Shown here: positions 23,484-62,673 of the stretch, in pieces
Layout: every line of letters starts with the position of its first letter
Numbering within the stretch: position 1 is the stretch's first letter
From: Candidatus Bathyarchaeota archaeon
GTDB taxonomy: Archaea > Thermoproteota > Bathyarchaeia > 40CM-2-53-6 > RBG-13-38-9
Direction of reading: 5' to 3'
Length of the DNA stretch: 64,000 bases
Assembly: GCA_963807605.1 (NCBI GenBank)
Contig: CAWECG010000001.1
Coordinates: forward strand, 320,001-384,000
The notes under the pieces: generated by a model
What the model was told of the DNA's origin: nothing
Databases searched by the model: none
The model's input: only the letters and a program-made list of their open reading frames with translations
Translations under genes and position numbers: made by a program

Positions 23484-23580
23484 AGATGTTCTAGAGCGCT
23501 ATCATGTGATAAAAATCTGCGTAGTTTTCCTTCTTACACTACATGGTAAGGAATAAGCTTGTAGTCTCCGAATAGCGCGC

Positions 23581-24706
23581 TAGCCTCTTGCAATATTCTT
23601 GGGCTTAACATGAAGATGTATACGTGTTTTTGATCATAAGATCGATGAGCTTTACACCCGCTCATGCCGTTTCTGGTGAAAAAGGAGTGAGCGAGTGTAA
23701 GGCTCTGTATGATCTGTTTCAGGCTTTGGATTTAACGTTTGTAGAACAAGTCTTGGAAAGAAGCTATGGGAGAAGAAGCAGGGTCGGCAGACCCCATAGA
23801 AATTTACTTGGAATGTTCAAAGCAGAGCTCATCAAACGGCTAAGACGCATAGAAAGCTACGAGGAACTATACCGACTTCTATGGAGTGACGGTGAACTCT
23901 GCAGACTCTGCGACATCAAGGAGACCGAGAACCCGTATCACCCATCAATACTTCTGAGGTTTCGACGTAGAATAGGCCCTCAAGGATTTCACCGCCTCAT
24001 GAACCGTCTGATCAAACAGCTCGACCATACAGGTGTCTTGGACAGTGAAACCCTAGCTTTGGATGCGACGTTCATCAAAGCTTACAGTCGAAGAGATCCT
24101 CACAATACCCAGTGTGGATTATCTGATTCTGAAGCCAGATTACGAAAACAAGGTAGAAACGTGATCTTAGGCTACGGTATACACCTAGCTGTAGACACCG
24201 CCAGCGAGATGCCGGTGGCAGTCACAGTGGAGCCTGCAAACGTCAACGAAAAGAAGATCGCATCCCACCTACTCCATAAAACCTTGAAGTACAAACATAG
24301 GTGGAAGAGCGTGACTGCAGACTCACAATACTCCAGCGAATCCTTCAGGGATAAGGCAAGATCCATAAGTGTTGAGCCTGTCATCCCCTACCCCAAGAAC
24401 CAGATGAAAGGCAAAAGAGTTCTACGTGTTGACAGAAGATTCCACACCCACGGACCTGCAAGGCTGAGACGTCTCTACCGAAAACGATCCTCTGTTGAGA
24501 GAACCGTCTCACGATTGAAGACACACTTCGGACTGTGCCAACTTAGAACCCGAGGATTAAGAAACGTCCTGTCACATGTAGTCCTATGCTTGATCGCAAT
24601 GTTGACGGCTGCTCTATCAGCGATCAAACAAGGATACACCCACAGAATGCGGTCACCAGTCCAACTCATGAAATTGACAGGACTAAAGTAATATTGCAAG
24701 AGGCTG
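23581..24706 (+). mobile_element. IS copy 1 (1126 bp, IS4/IS5-superfamily DDE), 17-bp TIRs, GCGCGC target duplication
   Basis: TAGCCTCTTGCAATATT ... AATATTGCAAGAGGCTG flanked by GCGCGC at 23575 and 24707. Confidence 0.92.
23624..24691 (+). CDS. DDE transposase
   Basis: ALDAT / TADSQY / YRKRSSVER catalytic motifs. Confidence 0.92.
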   Translation: MFLIIRSMSFTPAHAVSGEKGVSECKALYDLFQALDLTFVEQVLERSYGRRSRVGRPHRNLLGMFKAELIKRLRRIESYEELYRLLWSDGELCRLCDIKETENPYHPSILLRFRRRIGPQGFHRLMNRLIKQLDHTGVLDSETLALDATFIKAYSRRDPHNTQCGLSDSEARLRKQGRNVILGYGIHLAVDTASEMPVAVTVEPANVNEKKIASHLLHKTLKYKHRWKSVTADSQYSSESFRDKARSISVEPVIPYPKNQMKGKRVLRVDRRFHTHGPARLRRLYRKRSSVERTVSRLKTHFGLCQLRTRGLRNVLSHVVLCLIAMLTAALSAIKQGYTHRMRSPVQLMKLTGLK

Positions 24707-24736
24707 GCGCGCCATGCAATTTGGGGGGCGTTTAAG

Positions 24737-24970
24737 TTACTGGTTGACTAGTTGGAATGCGCCGGTGGGACAAACATTGACACATGCGCCACCAAAGTCG
24801 CATACTTCAGGGTGAGCTATAACAGATTTCCGGCCCTTGCCTTCAATCTCTCGGAGCTCCATCACTTTAGGATCCGTTGGACACACGCTGAAGCATGCGC
24901 CGCAACCTATACATACATCTTCGTCAACGAACGGCCGCATCATATTGCACCGTAGCTGGTGCCATAACAT
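24737..24970 (-). CDS. Dicluster ferredoxin
   Basis: CIGCGAC..CP and CDFGGAC..CP. Confidence 0.85.
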   Translation of the reverse strand: MLWHQLRCNMMRPFVDEDVCIGCGACFSVCPTDPKVMELREIEGKGRKSVIAHPEVCDFGGACVNVCPTGAFQLVNQ

Positions 24971-25193
24971 ACCTCCTTCTATTAAGGATTCATTCCAGTA
25001 AATAAAGAGATGAGAATAATCCAGAAGATCGTGGTCGGATACTGCCGATCTCTCAGGAGGAATTTTCCACTCAAGTATAATGCTTATTCCTTTTGTCCGC
25101 CCAAGTCGATATCACATCAATTGGAACGCGCCCAGCAAGAATTTAGGCCACGTTATCTTACATGACATTTGGACGTCTTCAAGGGGATCCTGC

Positions 25194-26909
25194 ATGAAGA
25201 ATATTGAGGTTGCTAAGATCCTGAAGGAGATCTCTATCATTCTAGATATGGATAATGTTCCATTCAAGCCTAGATCTTACGAGAAAGCTGCCCGGTCGAT
25301 AGAGGCTCAGGAAGAGGATGTTGAGGAAATATACGCGAAAGGCGGAGTAAAAGCCCTCATGGAAATTCCCGGCGTAGGCCAAAGTATTGCTGAGAAGATA
25401 GAGGAGCTCATTCAGACTGGAAAGCTGCGATACTATGAAGAATTGAAAAGAAGGATCCCGGTTGATTTGGAAAGCCTCTCAAAGATAGAAGGCCTCGGAC
25501 CAAAGACGATCAAGGTTCTCTGGGAAAAACTGCAGATCCAAAACATTGATGATTTGGAAAAAGCTGCCCGTGCTCACAAAATCGCTAAATTACCGGGGTT
25601 TAAGGAGAAAACCGAGCAGAATATACTGAAAGGAATCGAATTTGCAAAAAGGAGTAGTGGCAGGCATATTCTCGGATATGCCCTCCCGTTAATTCGCACA
25701 ATAGAAGATCGATTGAAGTCGCTTCCTGACGTAGAGAGCGTTTCGGTAGCAGGCTCAGTGCGACGGATGAAAGAGACTGTGGGAGACGTCGACTTCCTTG
25801 TCATATCAGCCAAGCCTGGAAAGGTGATGGATTATTTCGTTTCAATGCCCGAGGTCGTCGATATCATAGGAAAAGGAGACACTAAATCATCTATCAGACT
25901 GAAGACAGGCATGGACGCTGATATTCGAGTATTACCCGAGGAGAGTTTCGGTGCAGCGCTGCAATATTTCACGGGCAGCAAAGACCACAACATCGCACTA
26001 AGACGAATTGCCCAAGAAGAAGGGATGAAACTGAGTGAATACGGCCTTTTCAAGAACGACAAACAGGTAGCGGGGCGAACTGAGGAGGAGGTTTATCGGA
26101 AATGCGGGCTTGCCTGGATTCCCCCAGAGTTGAGAGAGAATACTGGTGAGATAGAAGCTGCCATCAAGAACAGATTACCCAGATTGATCAATTATGCGGA
26201 TTTGAAGGGCGATCTTCAGGTTAATTCGACATGGACCGATGGCGCTCACTCGATAAGAGAGATGGCTGAAGAAGCGAAGAGGATAGGCATGGAGTATATC
26301 GCCATCACCGACCATGCCAAAACACTTGCTATGACTAGAGGTTTGGATGAGAAACGGTTGATGGAACAAGGGGAGGAGATAGACAAGGTAAACGAAGAGC
26401 TTACGGGAATAAAGATTCTGAAAAGCATAGAACTGAATATTCTGAAAGATGGCAGTGTTGATATCGCCGATGATGTCTTGGAGAAATTAGATGTGGTCGG
26501 GGCGGCGGTTCATTCTTATTTCAACTTAAGCCGGGAAGAGATGACAAAGAGGTTTTTGAGAACTATTGAAAATCCTAATGTCGACATCATCTTTCATCCC
26601 ACGGCTCGACAGATTCAGAGGAGAGATGCGATTCAGCTGGACATTGAAAGAGTCATCGAGGCGTCGAAAGATCAGGGGACAATTCTTGATATAGACTCAT
26701 TTCCCGATAGGTTGGATCTGAAGGATGAGTACATAAGAAAAGGAGTGCAAGCTGGGGTTAAGTTGGATATAAGTTCTGATTCACATAGCAAATCCCACTT
26801 TCGGTTCTTGGAGCTGGGTATAGCTCAGGCTAGAAGAGGATGGGCGACTGCGAAGGATATTGTTAACACTCGTGGAGTGGATGAATTCACAAAACTCTTA
26901 AAATCCTGA
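25194..26909 (+). CDS. polX: DNA polymerase X / PHP domain protein
   Basis: HhH motifs, GSVRR..GDVD, FTGSK.HN, C-terminal PHP (ITDH, SSDSH). Confidence 0.93.
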   Translation: MKNIEVAKILKEISIILDMDNVPFKPRSYEKAARSIEAQEEDVEEIYAKGGVKALMEIPGVGQSIAEKIEELIQTGKLRYYEELKRRIPVDLESLSKIEGLGPKTIKVLWEKLQIQNIDDLEKAARAHKIAKLPGFKEKTEQNILKGIEFAKRSSGRHILGYALPLIRTIEDRLKSLPDVESVSVAGSVRRMKETVGDVDFLVISAKPGKVMDYFVSMPEVVDIIGKGDTKSSIRLKTGMDADIRVLPEESFGAALQYFTGSKDHNIALRRIAQEEGMKLSEYGLFKNDKQVAGRTEEEVYRKCGLAWIPPELRENTGEIEAAIKNRLPRLINYADLKGDLQVNSTWTDGAHSIREMAEEAKRIGMEYIAITDHAKTLAMTRGLDEKRLMEQGEEIDKVNEELTGIKILKSIELNILKDGSVDIADDVLEKLDVVGAAVHSYFNLSREEMTKRFLRTIENPNVDIIFHPTARQIQRRDAIQLDIERVIEASKDQGTILDIDSFPDRLDLKDEYIRKGVQAGVKLDISSDSHSKSHFRFLELGIAQARRGWATAKDIVNTRGVDEFTKLLKS

Positions 26910-27066
26910 CAGCGCGCGCTATTCAAATTTCGTCTGCCAATGAGCTAGAAAGAACTGTTAAAGCACCGTCTGACGGCTGCTCCCTCAGAAGAGGAGGCAT
27001 GATAAACTAATGTATCACAGAAAATCTTGATAAATTCGCGTCTTGATATCTAATGTGTAAAGGCGT

Positions 27067-29421: not shown

Positions 29422-29553
29422 CATCATCAAGCGCACGATGTCAGACCGATGTCATGACCGAATCTAGGCTTTAGTTCAACAATATCCTTGACCGCAATCA
29501 TAAGCTTGACACGGAAAAAAGGAAAAGGGATACTTCGCGCGCGCTAGCTCGTG

Positions 29554-34662: not shown

Positions 34663-35859
34663 ATGAAAACTCGATTTAAAGCGGTTCTAATAATTCTCTT
34701 CATCGTCACAGTACTATCAGCTCCAGTTAAAGCCCAAAACGTAAACCCATTGACTCCGTACGACATACGGGCCGCGTATGATGTGAACCCATTACTTCAA
34801 TCCGGCTACACTGGAAAAGGAGTAACCGTCGCCATTGTTGGCGAGAACATTGATGCAACCTACTATTCAGATGTGAACACGTTCAGCAGCAAATACGGAT
34901 TGCCACCCGCCAACATAAAGGCGGTCCAACCATACGCAGGCACAGGAACCGGTAAGACAGATGAAATAGCAGCGGATACGGAGTTTGTTCACGCAATGGC
35001 TCCTGACGCGAAAATTCTGCTTGTCCTAACTGGATCACAAAGCACTCTTAGGGGATTCTCCTACGTTATAGATCATAATGCTGCTGACATAGCGACGATG
35101 AGTTTTTACTGGTATTACTGGGGTAGTGGCGCTAGGGACACGGTTCAATCCTACAATCACGAATATGCCAACTCGGTTCGCAAGAAGATTACACTGATCT
35201 CCGTATCTGGTGACTTTGGATCTAACAATACTGTTCCTTGGGATCCTTCAGGAACTTGGAAAGGCGACTTCTGGGCGTCGCACCTGCCTAACGCGTATCT
35301 GATGCCTCAGTATAGTCCGTACGTCACGATTGTTGGAGGCACTGCTCTAACCTCACAGTCCAGTAATTATTCAGAAGTGGGGTGGAGTCAAAGCGGTGGA
35401 GGCCCAAGCAATCTATTTGCTGAACCAAGCTGGCAGAAGGGTCCCGGAGTTCCGCAGAACCACAGGCGCAATATTCCAGACATAGCGCTTGACGCATCAT
35501 CTAATACTCCCTATGCGTTCGATTGGAATGCAGATCAAGAGACTGAGTTCTGTGGGACTAGTGCGGCTGCACCAATATTCGCAGGGATTATGGCAGATAT
35601 TGATCAGGCTGCTGGAGGGCGAGTGGGCTTCCTGAATCCGCTACTATACTCGATTGCTTCAACAGACCCATCTGTATACCGTGATGTTACTTCAGGGTGT
35701 AGCTTAGTACAGGTAGGGTCTACCAATCAGACTGGATACTGTGCCCAGCCTGGTTGGGATTTCGTCACTGGCTGGGGAAGTATTGACGCATCTAAACTTG
35801 CGAGGCACCTTGCTCCGCACGCCAATATCTCTTACTTCTTGTCCCCAGTTCTTATCTAA
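34663..35859 (+). CDS. S53 (sedolisin-like) peptidase, secreted, no prodomain
   Basis: E..D (DEIAAD), SGD.G, GTSAAAP, GWDFVTGWG. Confidence 0.88.
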   Translation: MKTRFKAVLIILFIVTVLSAPVKAQNVNPLTPYDIRAAYDVNPLLQSGYTGKGVTVAIVGENIDATYYSDVNTFSSKYGLPPANIKAVQPYAGTGTGKTDEIAADTEFVHAMAPDAKILLVLTGSQSTLRGFSYVIDHNAADIATMSFYWYYWGSGARDTVQSYNHEYANSVRKKITLISVSGDFGSNNTVPWDPSGTWKGDFWASHLPNAYLMPQYSPYVTIVGGTALTSQSSNYSEVGWSQSGGGPSNLFAEPSWQKGPGVPQNHRRNIPDIALDASSNTPYAFDWNADQETEFCGTSAAAPIFAGIMADIDQAAGGRVGFLNPLLYSIASTDPSVYRDVTSGCSLVQVGSTNQTGYCAQPGWDFVTGWGSIDASKLARHLAPHANISYFLSPVLI

Positions 35860-36177
35860 CCACTTACTAAACGGCGCATAGAGTTGCGATTCCTCCTCCA
35901 CAATTCCAAGATCCTTAGCTAGATATTCTTGCGGCGCAGTTGATGCTTGTTTTAGCCATATGCTTCCGCCACGGCCGCGTCCGGTCTCAATTAGATTCGC
36001 CTGTTGTAGTTCGTTTACAACTTCCCAGTAAACTTCTTCAGGCCACTTCTCGTTCATGTCTTCAAGGAGGTCACGCAAATGAATGTTCCCGATGTGACCA
36101 ATCGGCGCAACTTTCCTTAGAAGCTGAAGTAGTACCTCCCCATTCCTAGAGAGTTTCCGCTCTGGCTCCGCTGCCAA
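35830..36177 (-). pseudogene. Winged-helix/restriction-related protein N-terminal fragment
   Basis: GRGRGGSIWL, EESQLYAPF; reading frame then runs antisense into the peptidase gene. Confidence 0.45.
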
Positions 36178-36337
36178 GATGAGTCACCACGCGGTAATAC
36201 AATGCCCCATTTCTTAGGCTTTGCCCCACCGGACTAAAATGGAACTTGCCATGAAATTGAGCATACTCAATTCCACCCGGGAATTCACGGGAGCTCATAG
36301 AAAGTAGATCTCAAATGTCACCTTGGCACATTAGCTG

Positions 36338-37348
36338 TTGGAGGCAGCTAGGATGAGTGTTGGACTAGTTCTGGAGAAATGCATACAAGTGTTCGGATCG
36401 GATGCCTTTGTGGAACATGAGAAGATATTCAGTGAACACCTCGCATATGCGCTTTGGTCTGCTTATCACCAAGGATTGCCCGAACCCTCTCTAGTCCAAA
36501 CTGTTGAGAGTGTAGTTAACCACCTCAACAACCTGACCATTACAAACATCAATCCTCATTTTGAGATATCGACAAAATCAATCTTCATTCATGGAAATAG
36601 GTCTCAGGTGAAATTTGACTACTGCGGAGAGACAATTCAAAGAGAGTTAGGGGATTTGATATTCATTGTGTCGATAATACTTGGTCACCAAAAATTCTTT
36701 GAAAAATTCACTATTAATCAATTCAAAAAAGATAACTCTAGATCAAAAGATATCTCATGGGATATTCGTAACAAAGGTCAGCTTTATTTGCTGTCGAGAT
36801 TTCCTAGATTCTCAGGAGCCACGGGGTCCCTGATTCCCCCTAGGAGATACACACTACGTAATATCTCCGGTTGCCTAGGCTCCTATGGGCTACTTCGCAG
36901 GCCGGGCGACATGGTTTTCACTAGTGCCTCCAAGCTCGATTCGATTATCGGTCTTCGAAATATTGTGAGAATAGGTGAGTTTGGTGGCTTGATCAGTGAG
37001 ACTGAATACCCACCTTGGTACATGCCATATCCATACCCTCACATCTTTCCGAATTACCATTATGCAGCAGATGTCTTCGATTTCTCACATAAACACTTGA
37101 TAATGGGCATAGGGGAGCCAACATTCATGAGACTAGGCAATTACAATTCGCAAGCTAGACACTTCCTTCATGAACTATTATTGGCAACAATAAAGAAGAC
37201 GGCCATAGAGACCGACCTAACAAAAGAATACTTCGACTATGATTATGTGGACAGCAAGGGAGAATATGGTCCCAGAGACAATTCAGAATTTGAGCCCGAA
37301 GGGGGAGATATAGGAATCATTAGTACTCTAATCAAGCTTGGAGAATAG
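36338..37348 (+). CDS. Hypothetical protein, possible PD-(D/E)xK-like nuclease
   Basis: ELGDLIF...INQFKK pattern. Confidence 0.5.
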   Translation: MEAARMSVGLVLEKCIQVFGSDAFVEHEKIFSEHLAYALWSAYHQGLPEPSLVQTVESVVNHLNNLTITNINPHFEISTKSIFIHGNRSQVKFDYCGETIQRELGDLIFIVSIILGHQKFFEKFTINQFKKDNSRSKDISWDIRNKGQLYLLSRFPRFSGATGSLIPPRRYTLRNISGCLGSYGLLRRPGDMVFTSASKLDSIIGLRNIVRIGEFGGLISETEYPPWYMPYPYPHIFPNYHYAADVFDFSHKHLIMGIGEPTFMRLGNYNSQARHFLHELLLATIKKTAIETDLTKEYFDYDYVDSKGEYGPRDNSEFEPEGGDIGIISTLIKLGE

Positions 37349-37514
37349 ATCGGACACATTTGGTTCGATCAGAGCATGAATGATTACCACTAAACATGCC
37401 AGAGTTACGCATACCGAAGAGCTCTAGCAAACGTGTTTAATGAGTAGAAACAGTTTGGAGAATATTTTCGCTCCGTGATAGACAGAGCAATTCTATTATC
37501 TTCCCCTTTAAACA

Positions 37515-37920
37515 GGTCATGTTTTGTATGCTATAGTTTGTTTCCTTTGCGCGATTTGCAGCTGGTTTTGTATTAGTTTTGTTTGTCTTTCTTGGGGGCA
37601 TGTCTTTACTACTGTTTATATTCCGTACAGGATTTTCTACTGGTTTTGTTTTCTTATTGATTGTAATGTTTAGGTAAGCTTGCTAGTGTGTTTTGTATTG
37701 TAGGTTTTCTGTTTGCTGTATATGGGGGTTGGTTATGCTATACCTTGTTTCTTCTTCCTGTGAGCTAGGGTAAACTAAAAACCCTGTAAACTATACATAA
37801 CATAAACCATAGAAACCATAACCCACTAACCTTCCACCTGCCGCAAACTGGCCAAACTGTTGCAGATATGCTCTGGCGGCATAGGGAGCACACTATTATG
37901 GTGGTGCTAACCGGCTAAGG
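37515..37920 (+). repeat. Non-coding skewed element copy A (homologous to 51380-51810)
   Basis: T/G-rich then A/C-rich; shared AAACYATACATAACATAAACCAYAGAAACCA block; ends in a degenerate core site. Confidence 0.75.
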
Positions 37921-37922
37921 TT

Positions 37923-38348
37923 CTATGAGGGTGTTTCAAGTTTCGTTCTTATGCTCTTTGCCAGATCAATTAGGAATTGTCTATCAAAGAAATCCTGCTT
38001 TATTGCTTCGTCTAGGAGTTGCAGCAGAGCGTTCTTTCCTATCATAGGAGCAAATTGACCGTATTTCTCCTTCCCCCCTATCTTCACCCAGTATGGAAAC
38101 CAAAACTCGTTCTTGTCTGAGGACGGGGAAATTTCCCACTCTAGCTGTACGATCGTAGGCATGAACTCAACTTCTCCTGCTTGTTTGCTATGACAGAGCA
38201 CTGGCTGTTTCAGCTTGGCAACCTTCTTGACGCAATAATTACCCCAGTATCTCGCTTTCCTTCTCTGCCCCTCAATTATCACTACAATCACCGCGCAGCT
38301 GATGCGATTCTCGACAGAGAAAAATGTTGTTAGGGGAAGTGTATTCAA
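37923..38348 (-). CDS. Hypothetical protein (start uncertain) between two core sites
   Basis: ORF with FWFPYW..KYGQFAP; stop abuts the core site at 37901-37920. Confidence 0.55.
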   Translation of the reverse strand: MNTLPLTTFFSVENRISCAVIVVIIEGQRRKARYWGNYCVKKVAKLKQPVLCHSKQAGEVEFMPTIVQLEWEISPSSDKNEFWFPYWVKIGGKEKYGQFAPMIGKNALLQLLDEAIKQDFFDRQFLIDLAKSIRTKLETPS

Positions 38349-38352
38349 TCCT

Positions 38353-38451
38353 GCGTGCGTAGCGAGCAGTTATCATTGGTGGTGGTGGGTGGTGTGTCCC
38401 TTGGTGAGAGCATCCGAAATTGAACCGTTAGGCTCTACTTTTAGCGCGCGC
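38353..38451 (-). repeat. Composite site: GCGTGCGTAGCGAGC + (GGT)n + tRNA-like core + GCGCGCGC
   Basis: Closely matches 51732-51806. Confidence 0.8.
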
Positions 38452-38767
38452 TAGAACGCACGCGTCTTCTTGGGATACTCTGGTATTCTCTAGACAATTT
38501 CCTTAACTGTCTTATGAGGCTGCCAACTTTCTTTTTTCTGAGTTTGTCTTTTCCAACTGTTTGTTGGACAATCTCTTGGAGGTTGTATTTGAGGAATTTA
38601 CTTATCGAGAGGGTGGGATTTTGTTCGACAAGTGCGTGGAGAGCGCTGTCAACTATGATGAATTTAGCGTCTTTTTTGAAAAGGGGATGCATGACTGAGT
38701 CGATCATCTTGTTTAGCTGGCCTTTCGAGTAAGTTCTACCTTGTGTTTCGTCAGCCAAGAGCAACAC
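38441..38767 (-). CDS. Hypothetical basic protein ending in a GCGCGCGC junction
   Basis: ORF; C-terminus SSAR* is encoded by the junction. Confidence 0.4.
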   Translation of the reverse strand: MLLLADETQGRTYSKGQLNKMIDSVMHPLFKKDAKFIIVDSALHALVEQNPTLSISKFLKYNLQEIVQQTVGKDKLRKKKVGSLIRQLRKLSREYQSIPRRRVRSSAR

Positions 38768-39326
38768 TATTACCTTGACGTTCCTGGCTCCTTTCTCTGA
38801 TTAAGCCGCCTTATGTCTCATTCTGTCTTGCCATGTCCTGCTATGTTCCACATGTCCCACGTGTCCCAAGTACTTTTTAGATGATTAAAAAAATCTTTTT
38901 ATGTGTAAGAGTCTCCGGTTTTCATCAGATTCTAGTGTCCCACTGTCCTCATTGTCCAGATTGTCCCTGTGAGAGGTTATGCGCGCGCGTACGAAAACTA
39001 ATCTTCAACTTAAGAAAGAAGACGACCACAAATAGGCTAGCTACCGGCAGCTAAATCTAGAATAATGATAGGCGAATGGAGGGGCTTAGTGTGTGCTATT
39101 CTTACAGGCACGCTGAAGGTTTTGTATCCCGGCTGAGCAAGCAAGAAAGACTGCTGCAAGAAGAGAGGAGAGTCTAAGATCTTGCCCAATAGGGAATCTT
39201 TCTAATCGTATGACAGAAAGCGCTAAGTTTTGTCCTAAATTGGCAGAGCGATTTCGATAAAACTGTTAAAAACATTCAAGCCATCCGTTGAGGATCGACC
39301 GGCTGTTTCGATAGGTGGACAAGCTC

Positions 39327-39470
39327 ATGATTGGTGAAAACGTCTGTGTCGAGTGTGGAAAGCGGTTTGTGCCCCTTGCTGAAGGGCAAAGAATCTGCGA
39401 TGAGTGCACTCAAATGGACGATTACATAATGGCCCGAAGCAACAGATGGTGCAAAAACTGTCTGCCGTGA
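39327..39470 (+). CDS. Small zinc-finger protein (47 aa), not in ORF track
   Basis: MIGENVCVECGKRFVPLAEGQRICDECTQMDDYIMARSNRWCKNCLP, three CxxC; AGGTGG RBS. Confidence 0.6.
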   Translation: MIGENVCVECGKRFVPLAEGQRICDECTQMDDYIMARSNRWCKNCLP

Positions 39471-39520
39471 ACCCAGTAACCGGATGAAATAAACGCTAAC
39501 CCCTCATCTCTCTCGCGCGC

Positions 39521-40646
39521 GAGCTTCTTGCAATATTATATTTTCTGTGTTAATTTTGTGAACTGGATTGGTGACCGCATTTTATCGATGTGTCCGTGCT
39601 TGATCGCGGATAAGGCAGTTGCCAGTAGAGCCAGCAGACAGAGAAGTACATGTGATATGACGTTTCTTAGGCCGCGTGTTCGAAGCTGAGACAATCCGAA
39701 GTGTGTCTTGAGTCTTGAGAATGTTCTCTCCACTGAGGATCGACGTTTATACAGTTGTTTCAGACGGGCAGGTCCGTGTGAGCGGAACTTCCGGTCGATT
39801 CGTAGAACCTGTTTGCCCTTCATCTGGTTTCTAGGGTAAGGTATGATTGGTTCTATGCCCATAGATCTTGCCTTGTCTCTGAAAGCTTCGCTGGAGTATT
39901 GTGAGTCTGCAGTCATGCTCTTCCACCTATGTTTCTTCTTCAATGCTTTATGGAGGAGGTGGGGTGCAACTTTTTTCTCATTTACATTTGCAGGTTCTAT
40001 GGTGACTGCCCGCGGCATCTCGCTGATGGTGTCTACAGCAAGGTGTATGCCGTAGCCTAAGATCACGTTTCTACCTTGTTTTCGTAATCTGGCTTCAGAA
40101 TCGGATAATCCACACTGGGTATTGTGAGGATCTCTTCGACTGTAAGCTTTGATGAATGTGACGTCTAACGCTAGGATTTCAGAGTCCAGAATGTCCATGT
40201 GGTCAAGCTGTTTGATCAGACGGTTCATGAGGCGGTGAAATCCTTGAGGGCCTATTCTACGTCGAAACCTCAGAAGTATTGATGGGTGATATGGATTCTC
40301 TGATTCCTTGATGTCGCAGAGTTTGCAGAGTTCACCGTCGCTCCATAGAAGTCGGTATAGTTCCTCGTAGCTTTCTATGTGTCTTAGCCGTTTGACAAGC
40401 TCTGCTTTGAACATTCCAAGTAAATTTCTATGGGGTCTGCCGACGCTGCTTCTTCTTCCATAGCTTCTTTCTAAGACTTGTTCTACAAACGTTAAATCCA
40501 AAGCCTGAAACAGATCATACAGAGCCTTACACTCGCTCACTTCTTTTTCACCAGAAACGGCATGAGTGGGTGTAAAGCTCATCGATCTTATGATCAAAAA
40601 CACGTATACATCTTCATGTTAAGCCCAAGAATATTGCAAGAGGCTA
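39521..40646 (-). mobile_element. IS copy 2 (1126 bp), GCGCGC target duplication
   Basis: Same TIRs; GCGCGC at 39515 and 40647; transposase 39536..40603. Confidence 0.92.
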
Positions 40647-40688
40647 GCGCGCGATTACAGATATTTCATTGTGAAAATTGAATCCGCG

Positions 40689-41147
40689 CTAAACCGTCTC
40701 TTCACCAATTACTCTGGTCATTCCGATTTGTCTTGCTTTTCTTACTACTCGTAAGCGTCTCCACCAGTCACGCAGAAAGGTACCTTGATAATCGTATGCC
40801 TTAGCGCGCGCGTGGTCTATTCCTAGGCCACGGAATTCTGCTCGTAACTTCAGAACCGTGATAACCACCTTGAGGGCCTTGCCTCGAGCAGGCGTACCAA
40901 CCTTCTGCGCCTCATAGTTCATCCAGGCAGCGGTCAGAGCCTGATCAACCTGAAGCAGAACTTCCTCACGGACTGATGGTGTCGCAAGTGCGTGGCGGCG
41001 GGCTCGCTCAGCTTTGACCCAACGCTGGACCGTCTTTTCACTAACACCAAACCTCTCAGCTATCCTCGAGGACATCATCTTGAACAGGGCAAGATCGAAA
41101 GATTCCGCCTGCTTCGCTAGGTCAGTGCCCCACTTTGTTCTGGTCAT
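40689..41147 (-). CDS. HTH protein (phage small-terminase-like), probably chimeric after GCGCGCGCG at 40804
   Basis: IAERFGVSEKTVQRWVK HTH. Confidence 0.55.
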   Translation of the reverse strand: MTRTKWGTDLAKQAESFDLALFKMMSSRIAERFGVSEKTVQRWVKAERARRHALATPSVREEVLLQVDQALTAAWMNYEAQKVGTPARGKALKVVITVLKLRAEFRGLGIDHARAKAYDYQGTFLRDWWRRLRVVRKARQIGMTRVIGEETV

Positions 41148-41355
41148 CTCTGAATTCTACCTTACAGGAGCATGCGGAATCAATTAGCGCTCCGATTCAG
41201 CTTATCGGCGCACGCTTCTACTCCCGATTCTTGGTTCGTCCGCAGATCCGATTATCGCTTAAATGACTCTGGGAGCCGAAAGCCACCAGATCGTCAAAGA
41301 CATCTATATATAAGTAGTATTCTAGTATACCACTTTGTGAAGAAGGCTCACCAGT

Positions 41356-41604
41356 ATGAGCGACAAACCACTATCCGGGATCGCTCTCAGAATCCTCCTA
41401 GTCATAGAGACCGGCGAAAGAACAACCTTCAACCAACTAAGACGAACCCCCAAGCAACCCGACGGCTTCAACCCCCGAACCCTAAGCAAACAACTCAAGG
41501 AACTCGAAAAAAAGAGGGCTCACCCAGAAAACCCCCCGAAAAGTAAGAGGAGGAAAACAATACCACTACTCCCTAACCAAAACAGGACGCAAGTGGCTAG
41601 ATGA
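41356..41604 (+). pseudogene. HxlR-type winged-helix regulator, frameshifted in an A-tract near 41510
   Basis: TFNQLRR...NPRTLSKQLKELEK. Confidence 0.6.
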
Positions 41605-41994
41605 ACCAATCAACATCTCCAGACCTGACTACAGCTCAATAGTAGAGATGATTGCCCGGCAAATGGTCCTGCGCCCAGATATTGAAAGCAAAATGGGGGC
41701 ATGGGACATGATCCGAGACAAAAAACCAGCTCACACTCTGGATCTTACGGTCAAGCTGAAAACACAAGTGAATATCTGGGAAATGAATGCAACCTGGATA
41801 ATGGACGGCAAAGACAATCTGAGGAGAAGCGAGCCTAAAATATCAAAATTGTCGCCATAATCAAAAACATAGCCCGAGCTCCATATCCAGAAATTATTCT
41901 CAGAAAAGGACATAATTACGGCTAGTCATGTCCCCAAAAAGACATCACAGACTGTTCAATGTGTTCAGGAGTCTACACAGAACCAAGCGCTATT

Positions 41995-42831
41995 TCAGAT
42001 TCCTTTTAGGGCCAGGACTTCTTTGGCAGGTTTTCTATCTTTGTTGCAGCTGATCAATCGCGGAGCATCCAAGAAACGCAGTTCATATCCCAAGTCCTCG
42101 TAGAGTTTGCATATTCTTGGGGTTGCCTGATTGGAGAGTACAACCGGGCCGGAATGCTCTGTCAACCAATTTGCCAGGCGCACCTGATCGTCCCAGGAGA
42201 ACCCTTCCTTAGAGTACTGGGTAAATATCACATCATAAGGCGGATCCGCATACACAAAATCATCTCGAGAAAGTGAGACCTTCTCGAAATCTCCGGTTGT
42301 AAACTCCCATTCTTGGAAAACCCGTTTGTACGGGGTAAAGTCGTGTGCGTAGTTGATCTTTTGGTATCGACCAAAGGGAACATTAAATTCCCCTGACCGG
42401 TTAAACCGGCAAAGCCCATTATAGCAGGTCCTATTAAGATAATAGAATAACTCAGCCGCTTCTTTGCTGCTGGCTTTTCCAGTCTTTACAAGTTGATTGA
42501 ATCGTCTTCGATGCTGATAGTAGAGTTTTCTATTGTTAGCCAGGGGTATGTCTGTTACAAGGCCCTTCTTGAGCCTTTGAAAGAAGTTTATGGCGTGATT
42601 GTTGATGTCATTAAGAAGAGCCTGAGCAGGCATTAGGCCTAGAACAACAGCAAGACCCCCACACAGCGGCTCAACAAGCCTACGGTCTCTGTAAGGCTCC
42701 CAGATTGGTCTCAGATAAGGAACAAGCCATCTCTTTCCACCAGCCCACTTCAACGGGGGTCTAAGCGATACACTCTCGTAATGGGAACGGTGTGAGGTCT
42801 GGCTCAAGCTTGACTCCATTACGATTGACAC
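41995..42831 (-). CDS. Dam/D12-class N6-adenine DNA methyltransferase (orphan copy)
   Basis: LKWAGGK, YNGLCRFN..GEFNVPFG, DPPY. Confidence 0.92.
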   Translation of the reverse strand: MSIVMESSLSQTSHRSHYESVSLRPPLKWAGGKRWLVPYLRPIWEPYRDRRLVEPLCGGLAVVLGLMPAQALLNDINNHAINFFQRLKKGLVTDIPLANNRKLYYQHRRRFNQLVKTGKASSKEAAELFYYLNRTCYNGLCRFNRSGEFNVPFGRYQKINYAHDFTPYKRVFQEWEFTTGDFEKVSLSRDDFVYADPPYDVIFTQYSKEGFSWDDQVRLANWLTEHSGPVVLSNQATPRICKLYEDLGYELRFLDAPRLISCNKDRKPAKEVLALKGI

Positions 42832-42931
42832 ATCAGCCAGAGATAAAGCACGCTGGCTTTAGCACCTCACCTTAGATTGCACAAGCAGAGAATCGAGTAC
42901 AATTCCAGGTGCTCTCACCAGTCAGAGCCAC

Positions 42932-43231
42932 AATGCCAAGTCTCCGCTGAACCTCTTCACTCTGCACACCCTCAGACCGTGCAAACCTGACAGCCTCACC
43001 CAAAGCACTCGTAATAGTGGAAAGATGATTCTTAGTACAGGGAATACAAGCCACATCCTTCAAGGTTGGGTAGGGATTCTTAACTACTGACACAGGCGCA
43101 ACCACCACTTTGGTATCTGTATACTCACTACGTATCTGTGAAAGCCGTTTTTCAAGCTCTTTTGAAGCAGACTCCAGCTGTCTCTCTAAAGACTCGGACA
43201 TTACGCCTTCACACAGTACCAAGGGTGCCAT
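42932..43231 (-). pseudogene. Hypothetical protein with CxxC, apparently truncated at a tRNA-like site (42895-42931)
   Basis: ACIPCTKNHL; last residues are encoded by the site. Confidence 0.45.
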
Positions 43232-43543
43232 GGCACTAATAGCGTCTTCTCAATGTTGCCCACGATGTTACTCACTATGGAAGATGAAAAGAGTAGAAGT
43301 TACAGCGACAGGCAGTAGAAAACATACGAATCCACTACACGAAAAGACACGAAAACGGTAGAAACCACTAGAAAACAGACGAATTTTACATTCAAAAAAA
43401 TTTTTTTTGGGAGGGAAACAAGTTCGTGTTTTTTCCTATCTTTTCGCCTCTTTTCTACTAAAAAAGGAAGTAAATTCGCATAAATTCGTGTTCTTAGCAA
43501 ACCTTATTCAAGTTCCTAGGACTCAATTTGAATAGCGGTTAAA

Positions 43544-43732
43544 TTGTCAGAAGACAAGAAGAAAACTGGAAAGATAAGCAAGCGCGAGAATATCATTCAA
43601 CTCTTAAAGACTAACAAACTGTCAAATGCACAAATAGCTGCCATGCTTGGTACTGACGAGAAATATGTTTCTCAGGAGCGCGCGCTTCGTACCAGTCTCC
43701 GAATACGGAGAATCGAGTTCAATTCCGGGTAG
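43544..43732 (+). pseudogene. Short HTH protein, cut at GCGCGCGC (43678)
   Basis: KRENIIQLL..LSNAQIAAMLGTDEKYVSQ. Confidence 0.55.
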
Positions 43733-43747
43733 TGGCGCTGCAAGCCT

Positions 43748-44392
43748 TTACTTGTCATAGACCGTGGGATCGGTAACATCTGCATCTTTGAAAGCCTTCT
43801 TGCGGTTCACGCATGATTCGCACATTCCACAGTGATTATTCTTGTTCAGATAGCAGCTCCATGTTAACTCGTAGGGGATGCCGAGTTTCATTCCCAGCTT
43901 GATTATTTGGAATTTCTTCATTTCGTGGAGGGGCGCGTCGATGACTATCTGGGTTTCTGTGCCTTTTCTCGCTGCTGTCTGAAAAGCCTGATAGAATTCC
44001 TCTCTGCAGTCTGGATAATAGGGGGCATCGGATGCTTGTGCTCCGTACAGGATCCTGCTGGCGCCTATTGAAATCGCATAGGCGACAGCTATCGATAGAA
44101 ATATTGCATTTCTGAATGGCACTATGACGACTGGCTTGAATATTGAAGGCATCGGAATTCGATCGTCCATAAGGGCTGTTGCTTCGCCGAAAACGTCTTT
44201 GAGGGAGGCGAGATCGATTATCTTCTGATTAATGCCTAATTTGTCAGCGATCATTTTTGCATGAAGGGTCTCTTTGGATGCGATTTGGCCATAGTTGAAT
44301 GTTATCGAATATACTTCATCCCCTTGTGATTTGGCTTGGTAGGCAACGGTTGCGCTGTCGGGTCCGCCGGAGAGAATAACTACGGTCTTCAT
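43748..44392 (-). CDS. queC: 7-cyano-7-deazaguanine synthase
   Basis: LSGGPDS, VPFRN, YPDC, WSCY...CGMCESC. Confidence 0.95.
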   Translation of the reverse strand: MKTVVILSGGPDSATVAYQAKSQGDEVYSITFNYGQIASKETLHAKMIADKLGINQKIIDLASLKDVFGEATALMDDRIPMPSIFKPVVIVPFRNAIFLSIAVAYAISIGASRILYGAQASDAPYYPDCREEFYQAFQTAARKGTETQIVIDAPLHEMKKFQIIKLGMKLGIPYELTWSCYLNKNNHCGMCESCVNRKKAFKDADVTDPTVYDK

Positions 44393-44396
44393 GGTA

Positions 44397-44897
44397 TCAT
44401 TCTTTCCTTAACGAATTCGGTATTCTGAGTCGTAGGAGGGTTCTGTAGACGAGGTATCCCAGGCCCGTTGTAGCTATTGTCAAACCAACAAAGACATAGA
44501 CGAAGGTGATGAGGTAGGGAAGGTGGAAGACAAGACTCAACAAGAATGCCACCCAGACCGAAACAAGCGTACTGTAGACCTGCAATCCAAGAAGAACACT
44601 CACATGCTTCAACCTGTACACTGCAAGAAGACCAAGTAGCGAAGGCAACACGCTCAACAGATCGATAGGTCCGAGAGGACTGGTCAGGTTGCCAATAAAA
44701 ACTCCAAGCGTCAGTCCGTAAACCGCAGGCAATCCGAACAGAGGAACCATTCCAATCAAAGCATTCGCTATACGAATCTGGATTTGTTGAAAACTTAATG
44801 GAGCAAAAACATTTACCAAAGTAACATAAAGTGCACAACAAACAACAACGAGTGCAATATCAAGAGTTCTGATCTTATCCAAACTGTTTCCTCCCAA
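44397..44897 (-). CDS. queT: QueT family transporter
   Basis: ALYV..APLSFQQIQIRIANAL..GVFIGNL.SPLGPID. Confidence 0.88.
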   Translation of the reverse strand: MGGNSLDKIRTLDIALVVVCCALYVTLVNVFAPLSFQQIQIRIANALIGMVPLFGLPAVYGLTLGVFIGNLTSPLGPIDLLSVLPSLLGLLAVYRLKHVSVLLGLQVYSTLVSVWVAFLLSLVFHLPYLITFVYVFVGLTIATTGLGYLVYRTLLRLRIPNSLRKE

Positions 44898-44945
44898 CCG
44901 GGGTTTCTAAAGCGGAACGGAGGGAGGCCTCCACCCGCTCTCCAC
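44898..44945 (-). promoter_or_regulatory. Candidate structured 5' leader of queT-queC
   Basis: Minus strand GAGCGG-GT-GGAGG-cctc-CCTCC-GTT-CCGCTT nested stem just before the start codon. Confidence 0.4.
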
Positions 44946-45754: not shown

Positions 45755-46621
45755 ATGAAACATGTGGTTAAATTCCAAGTCTTAACTGAAAGGCAGGAGT
45801 CGAGATTGCGTCAAACCTTAGGTATAACTCGTTTCGACACTACTGTTTCACTTAGACCCCCGCTTAAATGGGCTGGTGGTAAGAGATGGCTTGTTCCTCA
45901 CCTCAGGCCAATTTGGGAACCTCATAGAAATCGTCGGCTCGTTGAACCTCTGTGCGGCGGGCTTGCTGTTACCTTGGGCTTGATGCCTACTAGCGCTCTT
46001 CTTAATGACATCAACAATCACGCCATAAACTTCTTTCAAAGGCTCAAGAAGGGACTTGTGATAACCGTTCCCATGGAGAATAATCAAAAACTCTACTATC
46101 AGCATCGAAAACGATTTAATGAGCTTATCAAGACTGGCAGAGCTAACAGTCAAGAATCTGCCGAGTTATTTTATTATCTTAATAGAACTTGTTACAATGG
46201 ACTATGTCGTTTCAACCGGTCTGGAGAATTTAACGTACCTTTTGGACGGTACAAGAAAATCAATTACGTACGCGATTTCACCCCCTATAAACAAGTTTTC
46301 AAGGAATGGCTGTTCACAACAGGAGATTTCGAGGATGTCTCTTTAGATCCGAATGATTTTGTGTACGCAGACCCACCTTACGATGTGGAATTCACCCAAT
46401 ACTCCAAAGAAGGATTCTCATGGGAGGACCAAGTGCGTCTGGCTAAGTGGCTCACAAAACATTCTGGCCCAGTTGTACTTTCCAATCAAGCCACTCAGAG
46501 GATATGTGGACTGTATGGTGAGTTGGGGTACAGCTTGCGTTTCTTGAACGCGCCTCGAATGATTAGTTGTAAGGGAGATAGAACTCCCGCTAGGGAAGTC
46601 TTGGCTCTGAGAGGTATTTGA
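45755..46621 (+). CDS. Dam/D12-class N6-adenine DNA methyltransferase
   Basis: Same motifs; roughly 80% identical to 41995..42831. Confidence 0.92.
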   Translation: MKHVVKFQVLTERQESRLRQTLGITRFDTTVSLRPPLKWAGGKRWLVPHLRPIWEPHRNRRLVEPLCGGLAVTLGLMPTSALLNDINNHAINFFQRLKKGLVITVPMENNQKLYYQHRKRFNELIKTGRANSQESAELFYYLNRTCYNGLCRFNRSGEFNVPFGRYKKINYVRDFTPYKQVFKEWLFTTGDFEDVSLDPNDFVYADPPYDVEFTQYSKEGFSWEDQVRLAKWLTKHSGPVVLSNQATQRICGLYGELGYSLRFLNAPRMISCKGDRTPAREVLALRGI

Positions 46622-46794
46622 AATATGTCTCCTCGTGACCCAGGGACTGAGAGTGTGTTAGAAAAAAGATGCTTTCAGGTGAAGGCCCCTAGAGTCATAA
46701 GTTGCGTGGGTACTGGATGTGGCATGATTTCGGAGTTTGTTATTGGTAACTATTTGACACCAAAAGCCAAGCACAATCCATTGGTTGACATTGG

Positions 46795-55228: not shown

Positions 55229-55879
55229 TTAAGGCCCACCTGTGAAATATGCCATGACAGTGTGATCATAGTTCATCACGATTGTAACCGAGGCAGAGGG
55301 GGCGTAATTAACACCGTCAATAGTCCAGTAGCTTAAGGCATAGCCGTTATTGGGGTAGGCGGTTACCGTCACAACTGATCCAGCAGAATACGAGTAAGTC
55401 CCAATTGATGGAGAGGTAACACCCTGTCCGCTAGTGTATATCGTAAGCTGAGCCGTTACCATTAAGCCGTTGTTATAGAGGTTCCAATTGTAAGGGTGAT
55501 GAGTAACGCGCGTGCGCGCTAAACTGGGGGTAGCCCCGCCAATTGTTGCTTGGGCCTGCGTCGGAGTCGTTATCACGTTCCAAGACTTGGTCCCGCTCAA
55601 AGACTTGGTTCCGCTCCAATGTGTGGGTGCGGAGAAGTTTCCATGCGTGGGATAGGTCGTGTTAAGGATTCTACCCTCGTTTGGTTTCGTTTTATCTGGC
55701 GCTGCATTTACTGTCGCTACAAGTGTGGCGCTCGTCGCTAGCGCCGAACCTATAACTACTACGATCATCACTGCTACCGTAAGTGGGGCGATCTTAATTT
55801 TTGCTCTCATTTTTCCCACCATACTGTAATAATAATGGATATCTAGGTATGTGGGTTGTGGAACTTTGTGAGTGAACAA
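55229..55879 (-). CDS. Secreted protein with InlB B-repeat-like C-terminal domain, possibly chimeric at 55507-55519
   Basis: Signal-like segment; GSVVTVTAYPNNGY..SYWTIDG. Confidence 0.55.
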   Translation of the reverse strand: MFTHKVPQPTYLDIHYYYSMVGKMRAKIKIAPLTVAVMIVVVIGSALATSATLVATVNAAPDKTKPNEGRILNTTYPTHGNFSAPTHWSGTKSLSGTKSWNVITTPTQAQATIGGATPSLARTRVTHHPYNWNLYNNGLMVTAQLTIYTSGQGVTSPSIGTYSYSAGSVVTVTAYPNNGYALSYWTIDGVNYAPSASVTIVMNYDHTVMAYFTGGP

Positions 55880-60134: not shown

Positions 60135-60220
60135 TGTGTGTGTGCCTTATCTGGTGAGAGCATCCGGATTTGAACCTTTAGAGCAGGTTAATTTTCTTGT
60201 GATGCTGGAAAATAGCGCGC
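60135..60220 (-). repeat. tRNA-like core site followed by GCGCGC
   Basis: Minus strand GGTTCAAAT-ccggatgctctc-ACCAGATAAGGCACAC. Confidence 0.8.
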
Positions 60221-60472
60221 TCTACACCGGCCATTAAGATGGTTTTGAAGAAGCGAGGTCATCGGACTTACCCATACATGTTCTCGCTTCTCAGATTCTT
60301 AGCGCGTCGCTATGTTTTCATCGCCTTTAAGGGCTCAGGGCAAGCGTAAATCATGTCTTACAGATATTGTGTGAGTCAGCCCGCGCTGCACAAGGGATAA
60401 ATGATTGCGGGAACCTTTTGGATTTGACTAGAAAGCGCGCGTCGAGACCGTGACTTCGCTAATAGGAGGTTT

Positions 60473-61123
60473 GTGATGGAAGTTCTTGAGGCAATTAAAA
60501 AGAGAAGAACAATACGAGCGTTCACGAAAAGAGCTACCGAAGAGCAAGTGCGAAGGTTGCTACTTGCTGGTGTGCAAGCACCCTCCGGTTCGAATGTTCA
60601 GCCCTGGGAATTTATAATCATTGATGATCCCACGATTATTGAACAAATCGCGGAGGCTAAATATCAACAGACTCTAAAAATGGATATTGACGATGCGGTA
60701 CTCGAAAACCCGGCTGCCATTGAACAGATTCATCAGCAGTCTCTCAAGACTCCTCTTTCGCTAGTTAGAGCAACAAGACAGAAAAACGCTTATCAAAACT
60801 GTGCAGTGATCGCGGTCTGCAACAAAAAGGGGCACGGTATCGGACGAAAACCCTGGATGAATGTTGAGAATATAGCCAGCACGTGGATGTGCATCCAGAA
60901 TATCGCTTTGGCAGCAACCGCTGAGGGATTGGGTGTTCAGATTTCTATTCTTCGCGAGGAACACCAGATAGCCGTGGAAAAGCTCTTGGGCATCCCTGAT
61001 GACCACGAACTGGCCACTATGATAATGATAGGCGTGCCGGCAGGAATCCCCAACCGAAGAGAGTTTGGAGCGGATCGGCCGGAGTTTAGCTGGCTTCACC
61101 GGAATCGCTTCAGCACAGATTAA
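60473..61123 (+). CDS. Nitroreductase family protein
   Basis: RRTIRAF, APSGSNVQPWEF, QNIALAATAEGLG. Confidence 0.9.
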   Translation: MMEVLEAIKKRRTIRAFTKRATEEQVRRLLLAGVQAPSGSNVQPWEFIIIDDPTIIEQIAEAKYQQTLKMDIDDAVLENPAAIEQIHQQSLKTPLSLVRATRQKNAYQNCAVIAVCNKKGHGIGRKPWMNVENIASTWMCIQNIALAATAEGLGVQISILREEHQIAVEKLLGIPDDHELATMIMIGVPAGIPNRREFGADRPEFSWLHRNRFSTD

Positions 61124-61541
61124 AGTTTACCTGCGTCAATGGTTTAGGTGAAAATCTGACGGCATGCTTGACGCAGTATTTCTTAAGCTCTCTACCATTA
61201 AGCCTGTTTTCAAACCTGTTCAGCTTAACCCACAGGTGATTCAAAGTTTCAAGCCGGAAGTGCTTTCTTGAGAAATTCCAGATTTTCCCCCTAAACATCA
61301 TTTTCCTGTAGAACGCCCGGATCTCTGAAGTCTGCACTTCCAGCTCAGACCATCATGGATCCTTCCTCGAATAAGAAACAGAGAGGAGAATGAATGTCCA
61401 GAGAGGGAAAAGTGTACGTCTACTCTCAGCTGGCGGTTTGACGGTCAAAACTGCTGGATGCTAGGTGTTCAAGCGGCCATTCTTAGGGCATTTGCAAATC
61501 GAGGATGTCGGCGAGGTTGTAATGCCAACAAGTAAGCGCGC

Positions 61542-62667
61542 TAGCCTCTTGCAATATTCTTGGGCTTAACATGAAGATGTATACGTGTTTTTGATCATAA
61601 GATCGATGAGCTTTACACCCACTCATGCCGTTTCTGGTGAAAAAGAAGTGAGCGAGTGTAAGGCTCTGTATGATCTGTTTCAGGCTTTGGATTTAACGTT
61701 TGTAGAACAAGTCTTAGAAAGAAGCTATGGAAGAAGAAGCAGCGTCGGCAGACCCCATAGAAATTTACTTGGAATGTTCAAAGCAGAGCTTGTCAAACGG
61801 CTAAGACACATAGAAAGCTACGAGGAACTATACCGACTTCTATGGAGCGACGGTGAACTCTGCAAACTCTGCGACATCAAGGAATCAGAGAATCCATATC
61901 ACCCATCAATACTTCTGAGGTTTCGACGTAGAATAGGCCCTCAAGGATTTCACCGCCTCATGAACCGTCTGATCAAACAGCTTGACCACATGGACATTCT
62001 GGACTCTGAAATCCTAGCGTTAGACGTCACATTCATCAAAGCTTACAGTCGAAGAGATCCTCACAATACCCAGTGTGGATTATCCGATTCTGAAGCCAGA
62101 TTACGAAAACAAGGTAGAAACGTGATCTTAGGCTACGGCATACACCTTGCTGTAGACACCATCAGCGAGATGCCGCGGGCAGTCACCATAGAACCTGCAA
62201 ATGTAAATGAGAAAAAAGTTGCACCCCACCTCCTCCATAAAGCATTGAAGAAGAAACATAGGTGGAAGAGCATGACTGCAGACTCACAATACTCCAGCGA
62301 AGCTTTCAGAGACAAGGCAAGATCTATGGGCATAGAACCAATCATACCTTACCCTAGAAACCAGATGAAGGGCAAACAGGTTCTACGAATCGACCGGAAG
62401 TTCCGCTCACACGGACCTGCCCGTCTGAAACAACTGTATAAACGTCGATCCTCAGTGGAGAGAACATTCTCAAGACTCAAGACACACTTCGGATTGTCTC
62501 AGCTTCGAACACGCGGCCTAAGAAACGTCATATCACATGTACTTCTCTGTCTGCTGGCTCTACTGGCAACTGCCTTATCCGCGATCAAGCACGGACACAT
62601 CGATAAAATGCGGTCACCAATCCAGTTCACAAAATTAACACAGAAAATATAATATTGCAAGAAGCTC
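61542..62667 (+). mobile_element. IS copy 3 (1126 bp); transposase 61585..62652 identical in protein to copy 2
   Basis: TIRs; flanks GCGCGC / ACGCGC. Confidence 0.92.
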
Positions 62668-62673
62668 ACGCGC

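Follow-up and report, generated by a model that had tools for sequence, protein, structure and literature searches.

Three insertion sequence copies in the window

The stretch of DNA analysed here, referred to throughout as the window, comprises 64,000 nucleotides (nt) of a 2.65-Mb, 5-contig Bathyarchaeota genome and corresponds to its positions C1:320001-384000 (the genome is labelled G000 when set beside its relatives, and sites outside the window are given by contig and coordinate). It holds three copies of an insertion sequence (IS) of 1126 bp, each with 17-bp terminal inverted repeats (TIRs) and a single open reading frame (ORF) for a transposase of 355 amino acids (aa), and each bounded on both sides by a run of alternating G and C. 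The three copies and their TIRs had been recognized in the original prediction, and were borne out by reading the ends, with the refinement that the TIRs are imperfect: the left one is TAGCCTCTTGCAATATT, and the right one, as reverse complement, matches it at 15 of 17 positions in copies 2 and 3 (GAGCTTCTTGCAATATT) and at 16 of 17 in copy 1 (CAGCCTCTTGCAATATT). The flanks likewise agree with those first described, namely GCGCGC/GCGCGC for copy 1 (23575-80, 24707-12), GCGCGC/GCGCGC for copy 2 (40647-52, 39515-20), and GCGCGC/ACGCGC for copy 3 (61536-41, 62668-73). The features are as follows:

23575-23580: left GC run of copy 1 (ata-GCGCGC) and the earliest such run in the motif-rich island
23581-24706, + strand: IS copy 1, B type, 1126 bp, imperfect 17-bp TIRs, 86% identity to copies 2 and 3
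23624-24691, + strand: transposase ORF of copy 1, 355 aa, with DDE_Tnp_1 (PF01609) and DUF772 (PF05598) domains
24707-24712: right GC run of copy 1 (GCGCGC-catg)
39514-39520: GC run bordering copy 2 on its right, outer side (+ strand: CGCGCGC)
39521-40646, - strand: IS copy 2, A type, 1126 bp, identical to copy 3 and to three more genomic copies
39536-40603, - strand: transposase ORF of copy 2, 355 aa
40647-40653: GC run bordering copy 2 on its left, inner side (+ strand: GCGCGCG)
61536-61541: left GC run of copy 3 (taa-GCGCGC)
61542-62667, + strand: IS copy 3, A type, 1126 bp
61585-62652, + strand: transposase ORF of copy 3, 355 aa
62668-62674: right flank of copy 3 (ACGCGCG), an A-first flank that recurs at the copy C3:246507

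The same anatomy emerges from a repeat search, which paired 39514-40652 with 61536-62674 as inverted arms of 1139 nt each, reported as 100% complementary (the sole difference seen between them is a G/A at 39520 versus 62668), and found the arms 23571-24712 and 39515-40656 to be 86% alike. In IS-like contigs from other sediment metagenomes the match reaches position 40652, the inner end of copy 2, and the sequences diverge beyond it. All three copies are intergenic: copy 1 lies between a gene for an isopropylmalate or isocitrate dehydrogenase and one for a family-X polymerase, copy 2 between small ORFs and the gene of an HTH protein, and copy 3 between nitroreductase and P-II protein genes.

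Copies 2 and 3 are, as originally proposed, inverted around about 21 kb; 20,883 nt separate the two identical elements, which thus bracket a 20.9-kb segment in the layout of a composite transposon. The inner DNA of this segment was not found in the five relatives searched, and the outer ends of the two-copy unit cannot be paired because every flank is a GC run. The two copies could invert or mobilise the 20.9 kb, though there is no sign that they did so.

With respect to the affinities of the transposase, the DDE_Tnp_1 profile (PF01609) scores 90.7 and 102.1 bits (cut-off 23), PF13751 is also above its own cut-off, and DUF772 (PF05598) is recognized in residues 55-128 with 33.4 and 29.7 bits (cut-off 23.1). 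The best match among the NCBIfam models is IS1182 (NF033551), with 127.7 bits against a cut-off of 270 and an alignment in three pieces only; the element, with its 1126 bp and 355 aa, is shorter than this 488-position model. The IS5_4 model (NF033581) gives 110 bits against a cut-off of 140 in an end-to-end alignment (residues 29-325 on 3-281 of 285), the remaining IS5 models score below it, and no curated NCBIfam cut-off is reached. Since the nearest models, IS1182 and IS5_4, are both under their cut-offs, the element is classified, on profile similarity, as a divergent IS5/IS1182-like DDE insertion sequence. A search of public records with the single transposase protein retrieved one near-identical record.

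Alternating GC runs beside the element in the genome and the class

The genome contains 7 full copies of this IS, of which five are 100% identical (A type) and two are at 86% identity (B type), in addition to three fragments. Together with the 17-bp TIRs and the single 355-aa ORF these are the traits of a classical IS. The flanks of the full copies, left and right, are:

Copy C4:41602-42727: CGCGCGCGC and GCGCGtt
Copy C3:1079171-1080296: GCGCGC and GCGCGgg
Window copy 3: GCGCGC and ACGCGCGtt
Window copy 2: GCGCGC and GCGCGCGag
Copy C3:246507-247632: ccaACGC and ACGCGCGgt
Two B copies: GCGCGC and GCGCGC

The five identical copies have left runs of 9, 6, 6, 6-7 and 3 nt and right runs of 5, 5, 7, 7 and 7 nt. 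Since the length varies this much among identical elements (left 3-9 nt, right 5-7 nt), the run is not carried as a constant piece of the IS, and the alternative that GCGCGC simply belongs to the TIR, which had been named as the observation that would overturn the initial idea, does not describe these copies. A lone 50-nt left end of the IS at C1:440985-441034 is 96-98% identical to the type found in the relatives G008 and G012, and is unlike the copies of the present genome.

A protein search uncovered a second IS lineage of about 1.1 kb in the same genome, with 7 copies, a transposase 41% identical to that of the window, and TIRs GGGYTTGTCCCGATATT. Its copies are at the following positions:

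C1:531285-532389
C1:587492-588596
C3:162633-163737
C3:256831-257935
C3:458336-459440
C3:701725-702830
C3:1082192-1083297

By alignment GCGCGC is present at 14/14 junctions of this second lineage, preceded by TA in 6/7 copies and followed by T in 7/7; an automatic count gave 5 nt for two of the left runs, which we attribute to end coordinates that are one base off. Hence, all 28 ends of the 7 copies of the window IS and the 7 of the second lineage abut a (GC)n run, and the strict tie to the GC motif asserted at the outset is upheld both here and in relatives. All seven second-lineage copies have one in-frame TGA between an N-terminal part and a 208-aa DDE part, whereas the homologue in G001 lacks it; this could reflect read-through, a two-part protein or decay. 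One second-lineage copy (C1:587486-588610) sits within a 24-nt perfect palindrome, TTCGGATA-(GC)n-TATCCGAA, and TATTTGAA after the run is common to two other copies of the lineage. In some cases the palindrome of a tract may reach beyond A(GC)nT.

Transposase homologues with 28-55% identity were detected in 57 of 301 Bathyarchaeia genomes. TIRs could be defined in 18 of 25 new loci, in the copy G018:C168 and in 9 further copies of genus g39, and nearly all ends of these copies abut a GC run. The two exceptions are locus L230, with a right end that lacks a run, and locus L232, a copy in G092 flanked by CGTGC/GCACG; the latter sequence was considered as a motif of the G092 host and rejected (CGTGCACG occurs 7 times against 5 in the control). 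GC-flanked copies were also found in genomes with only 5-9 occurrences of GCGCGCGC (G018, G069, G163, G164 and G209), which therefore points to a property of the transposase and not of the host. A scan of metagenome contigs with the TIR 16-mer added two real ends, the other 118 of 120 matches being by chance.

The motif itself is abundant. The window contains 49 occurrences of GCGCGC, where shuffled sequences lead one to expect 6.9 (maximum in any shuffle, 15), and 48 of the 49 lie within 23575-61541, leaving one for the initial 23.5 kb. The genome as a whole has 640 alternating runs of at least 6 nt, clustered in islands: 193 of 6 nt, 127 of 7, 198 of 8, 74 of 9, 36 of 10, and 12 of at least 11 nt, six of the last being at least 12 nt. 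The tracts of at least 7 nt (about 450) are mostly intergenic and clustered in accessory islands; A precedes 69% of them, and the following flank begins with T in about 71-72%, with TA in 30% and with TAG in 10%. Four unoccupied motifs followed by TAG (at 29545, 31058, 38452 and 55117) had been taken as possible traces of the left IS end. All four exist, but their TAG is accounted for by this general consensus and does not mark the IS; moreover, TAGCCG flanks of empty motifs bear no likeness to the IS beyond 5 nt. Direct repeats outside free tracts were no more frequent than in shuffled pairs (447 tracts tested).

The motif also exists where the transposase does not. Four genomes of the same family (G003, G004, G007 and G010) have 120, 158, 165 and 227 occurrences of GCGCGCGC, and three others of the class (G107, G113 and G136) have 601, 373 and 300, none of them with a transposase match. 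The GC motif is not produced by the IS, and the suggestion that the transposase builds the mosaic of these islands or leaves (GC)4 footprints falls with these genomes.

Further features touch the motif. An interrupted tract, CGCGCGTGCGCGCT at 55507-55520, reads as the reverse complement of the two flanks of copy 3 put together; it could be a footprint of excision or simply a variant of the motif. Four tracts of the form A-GCGCGC-A-CGCGC-T occur in the genome (that at 55507-55520, C3:722844, C3:824721 and C5:28648), and the shorter GCGC-A-CGCG is seen in a patch-like context in 28 tracts; for these, too, either excision or variation of the patch may be the origin. (GC)6 sites number about 6. 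A non-coding repeat of about 220 nt opens with CTATGTGAAG right after a GCGCGC run, is present in six or more copies (C1:251567-251776, C3:445742-445905, C3:1001395-1001617, C4:3244-3470, C4:74548-74759 and others), lacks a transposase, and in many cases precedes a segment of about 110 nt resembling the 3' end of a tRNA.

Origin of the runs that flank the element

To describe the insertion event we let element boundary and duplication length vary in all combinations and scored each against 13 full copies, namely the 7 of this genome, five from G001, G002, G008 and G012, and one from a metagenome contig. The model that accounts for 13/13 copies pairs a 2-bp CG duplication with an additional element base at each end, and a 4-bp GCGC duplication accounts for 11/13; under both models the net gain is four alternating bases per insertion. 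The 6-bp GCGCGC target duplication implied by the original prediction did not survive this comparison, as it fits only 3/7 copies of this genome and is not among the 16 best models. The A shared after the right end by two sister copies, and the C in a copy of G012, are explained in the CG-duplication model because the terminal base belongs to the element; the base next to the IS is indeed fixed within each IS lineage, and for that reason can be assigned to it. Two further models were rejected: 1) a zero-length duplication, which would require rare targets of 11-14 nt; and 2) a duplication of the whole tract, which would require equal run lengths on both sides, when many copies are unequal.

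Taken together, the observations are best accommodated by the proposal that the IS parasitises the GC motif, given that both lineages (7 + 7 copies) and elements of other genera and of the class at large show the association. We accordingly regard it as probable that there is a Bathyarchaeia-wide clade of IS elements that targets (GC)n tracts as insertion sites. In this reading the element is an ordinary IS of the cut-and-paste type, with a single DDE transposase of the IS5/IS1182 superfamily and 17-bp TIRs, whose transposase would itself select alternating (GC)n tracts. It would enter a pre-existing tract, usually 6 nt from one edge, splitting it into two halves that come to flank the element, with a gain of four alternating bases. 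This gain would be either the 4-bp GCGC duplication or, in the better fit, the 2-bp CG duplication with one element base per side, the terminal bases of the element then being C...G, or C...A in two copies.

Several observations speak for such a split. First, among 35 copies the left and right run lengths most often add up to 12 (15 copies), 13 (9) or 14 (5), and with one outlier left out they are negatively correlated (r = -0.38, p ~0.02), which is what is expected if a single tract of 8-10 nt were divided at varying points and four bases were added. Second, the outer edges of IS-flanking runs keep the A...T signature of the free tracts: A precedes 12/14 of them (p = 8e-6 against base composition) and T follows 9/14, a figure that rises to 10/14 when the A opening the right flank of copy 3 is taken as part of the run. 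The regular 6+6 nt of the second lineage, the GC flanks in genomes nearly devoid of such runs and the intergenic position of the three window copies point the same way.

Several observations weigh against a pre-existing tract. No true empty allele was found, so that a tract older than the IS is presumptive at every filled site. The DNA around the copies is accessory. Searches with the flanks of 6/7 copies (all but C5:37846) in five relatives each, and with the C5:37846 locus in 40 relatives, matched only the IS itself or distant genes. Conversely, flanks of the relatives' copies compared with this genome, G012, G014, G002 and G001 gave only comparators of 70-78% identity, none of them with a GC run. 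Public sequencing runs held at best 5-6% of the words of 35000-44900, and the four examined contained no allele of this strain, though they showed relatives of the IS and a patch-sealed deletion. Where comparators without the IS could be aligned, they also have no GC run: 1) a 72% paralogue of the C5:37846 site; 2) the 70% orthologue in G000 (C3:1022486-1022907) of the site of the G008:C6 copy; 3) the 78% G000 orthologue of the left junction of the G001:C166 copy; and 4) a 90% paralogue of the right flank of window copy 2, in which the junction is likewise free of such a run. The flanks are collinear in the first three. Two events must therefore be assumed at a single position in each case. 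In the G008:C6 copy (locus L172, 2750-3925) the 6-nt sequence AGTCTA is repeated outside both GC runs, as if a GC-IS-GC unit had entered whole. The A-first right flank of two copies fits the 4-bp duplication in one only. Finally, the flanks in genus g39 are longer, with 6-10 nt per side and sums up to 18, and tracts of 12-14 nt, as required there by a gain of 4 nt, are rare (about 9 sites per genome).

An extension of the tract-targeting proposal, which we consider doubtful, is that the element is specialised on a sequence left by host break repair, and that the break remaining after its excision is sealed with a new (GC)n patch that renews the landing pad. If this were true, IS activity and the writing of patches would feed each other and concentrate rearrangement in the accessory islands, and the tract at 55507-55520, matching the joined flanks of copy 3, would be an excision footprint.

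The foremost rival holds that the GC runs were written at insertion, an excised linear IS being joined to a chromosome break by the host end-joining activity that also writes (GC)n elsewhere; the IS would then count as another stitched-in module and not as a site-specific element. Such an origin would account for the comparators in which the IS and the GC run are both lacking and the flanks are collinear with few bases lost or duplicated, and for the truncated IS copies, which end in GC patches. Patches do arise at joints, as contigs of three other sediment metagenomes have AGCGCGCGCCT in place of 42046-42767 of the window (722 nt), a patch-sealed deletion; the g39 junctions, with 6-10 nt each, resemble a free patch, and insertion of bacterial IS elements into existing breaks without duplication is documented (bioRxiv 10.1101/2024.06.02.596822). 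However, the second-lineage junctions all look exactly 6 nt long (14/14), whereas free tracts have 6-10 nt, and this exact 6+6 is too regular for two independent patches. The junctions in this genome are likewise about 6 nt each, with both sides adding up to a patch and four further bases, the A/T found at both edges of free patches is missing where the junctions meet the IS, the IS termini are exact in every copy, and GC flanks are present even in genomes with almost no GC runs. On balance we hold this origin to be unlikely.

A second rival, in which GCGCGC is the outermost part of the element, as a longer TIR, and insertion has no preference for GC, draws on some of the same facts. All lineages of the clade have GC runs beside them, even where transposase identity drops to about 30% and the TIRs are otherwise unrelated, and genomes poor in such runs are no exception; the base that opens the flank travels with the element (A in the two sister copies, C in G012), and the AGTCTA repeat of G008:C6 lies outside the runs. 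Against this, the element can bear no more than CGC at its left end and 5 nt at its right, so the remainder must come from GC-rich targets; there is no consistent duplication outside the runs, free tracts have no flanking repeats, and the outer bases match the signature of free tracts rather than base composition. An element-borne run consequently appears unlikely as well.

By far the least credible is the notion that the (GC)4 motifs across the genome are products of the transposase, left by its excision or arising while the mosaic is built, for which the agreement of 55507-55520 with the joined flanks of copy 3, the four tracts of its form and the (GC)6 sites might be cited, but which founders on about 450 tracts against 14 full IS copies, on the many genomes with 120-601 tracts and no transposase homologue, on the general consensus behind TAG, and on the 12-14 nt that joined flanks would have, when only 6 of 640 runs reach 12 nt.

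Known site-specific elements and further observations

Site-specific insertion sequences are already known, and several invite comparison with the element described here. The closest in behaviour are those inserting into repetitive extragenic palindromic (REP) sequences or bacterial interspersed mosaic element (BIME) palindromes, such as IS1397, ISKpn1, ISPpu9, ISPpu10 and others (Tobes and Pareja 2006, PMC1525189; ISPpu9, PMC12288879). Like them, the present element is multicopy, avoids genes, and is found only inside a short, dispersed, palindromic and mostly intergenic host repeat that exists independently of the IS. The REP-targeting elements, however, are bacterial, belong to the IS3 and IS110 families and use structured REP targets of 30-40 nt, whereas here the host is archaeal, the transposase is IS5/IS1182-like and the target would be an alternating GC tract of 6-10 nt.

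Nearest in protein and in the preference for palindromes is IS1272 of Staphylococcus aureus, a member of the IS1182 family, which targets inverted-repeat structures and replaces its target without duplication (PMC5678879). It shares with our element a related transposase superfamily (IS1182 being the best NCBIfam match, below its cut-off) and a target that is palindromic rather than a fixed asymmetric sequence, but differs in that here both halves of the palindrome stay beside the element and 4 bases are gained. IS5 of Escherichia coli is an element of about 1.1-1.2 kb with a DUF772 + DDE_Tnp_1 transposase and TIRs of about 16 bp, and it duplicates a palindromic tetranucleotide. The size, the TIR length and the single transposase of about 330-355 aa with both domains are similar; the IS5 target, in contrast, is YTAR (CTAG-like) instead of GCGC or CG within a longer GC tract, and the present protein falls below the cut-off of every NCBIfam IS5 model.

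Specialisation on a recombination-related host site that marks module borders is another recurring theme. IS1111-type elements insert in integron attC sites. Elements of the IS1202 group target dif or XerCD sites (PMC10132070; bioRxiv 10.1101/2022.12.17.520857). Both groups resemble the present IS in this specialisation, and differ from it in having other transposase families, an oriented insertion beside a protein-binding site and no GC tract. In the literature (full text, GCGCGC with insertion sequence and transposase) we found no IS that targets alternating GC tracts, nor any entire archaeal IS clade aimed at them. What is new is thus the probable class-wide archaeal clade directed at such tracts; the link of the IS to the GC runs, its second lineage and the class-wide spread are additions of the present analysis, which also disposes of a wrong lead, namely that the IS produces the motif.

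If the tracts are repair scars, the element would exploit a by-product of host DNA joining, which would help to explain the mosaic accessory islands of these archaea. The element also marks its target with exact ends, so that a filled and an empty allele, when compared, would give the length of the tract prior to insertion. With a simple, short target that is programmable by placement, the transposase may also serve as a tool.

Some minor features of the window deserve mention. Copy 1 lies exactly at the border of the GC-run island, about 90 nt upstream of the dehydrogenase gene, and synteny with G003 stops at that gene. The family-X DNA polymerase adjoining this copy at the island edge (25080-26909, + strand; pol beta thumb, HhH and PHP domains) is a repair polymerase bordering a region full of presumed repair scars. 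The deleted segment 42046-42767 falls within an arm of a 782-nt inverted repeat (41991-42772 / 45844-46625) whose arms are 77% alike. At positions 18615-19754 there are eight tandem 120-nt units, with 62-84% identity to a reference copy, within a 703-aa ORF at 18504-20615.

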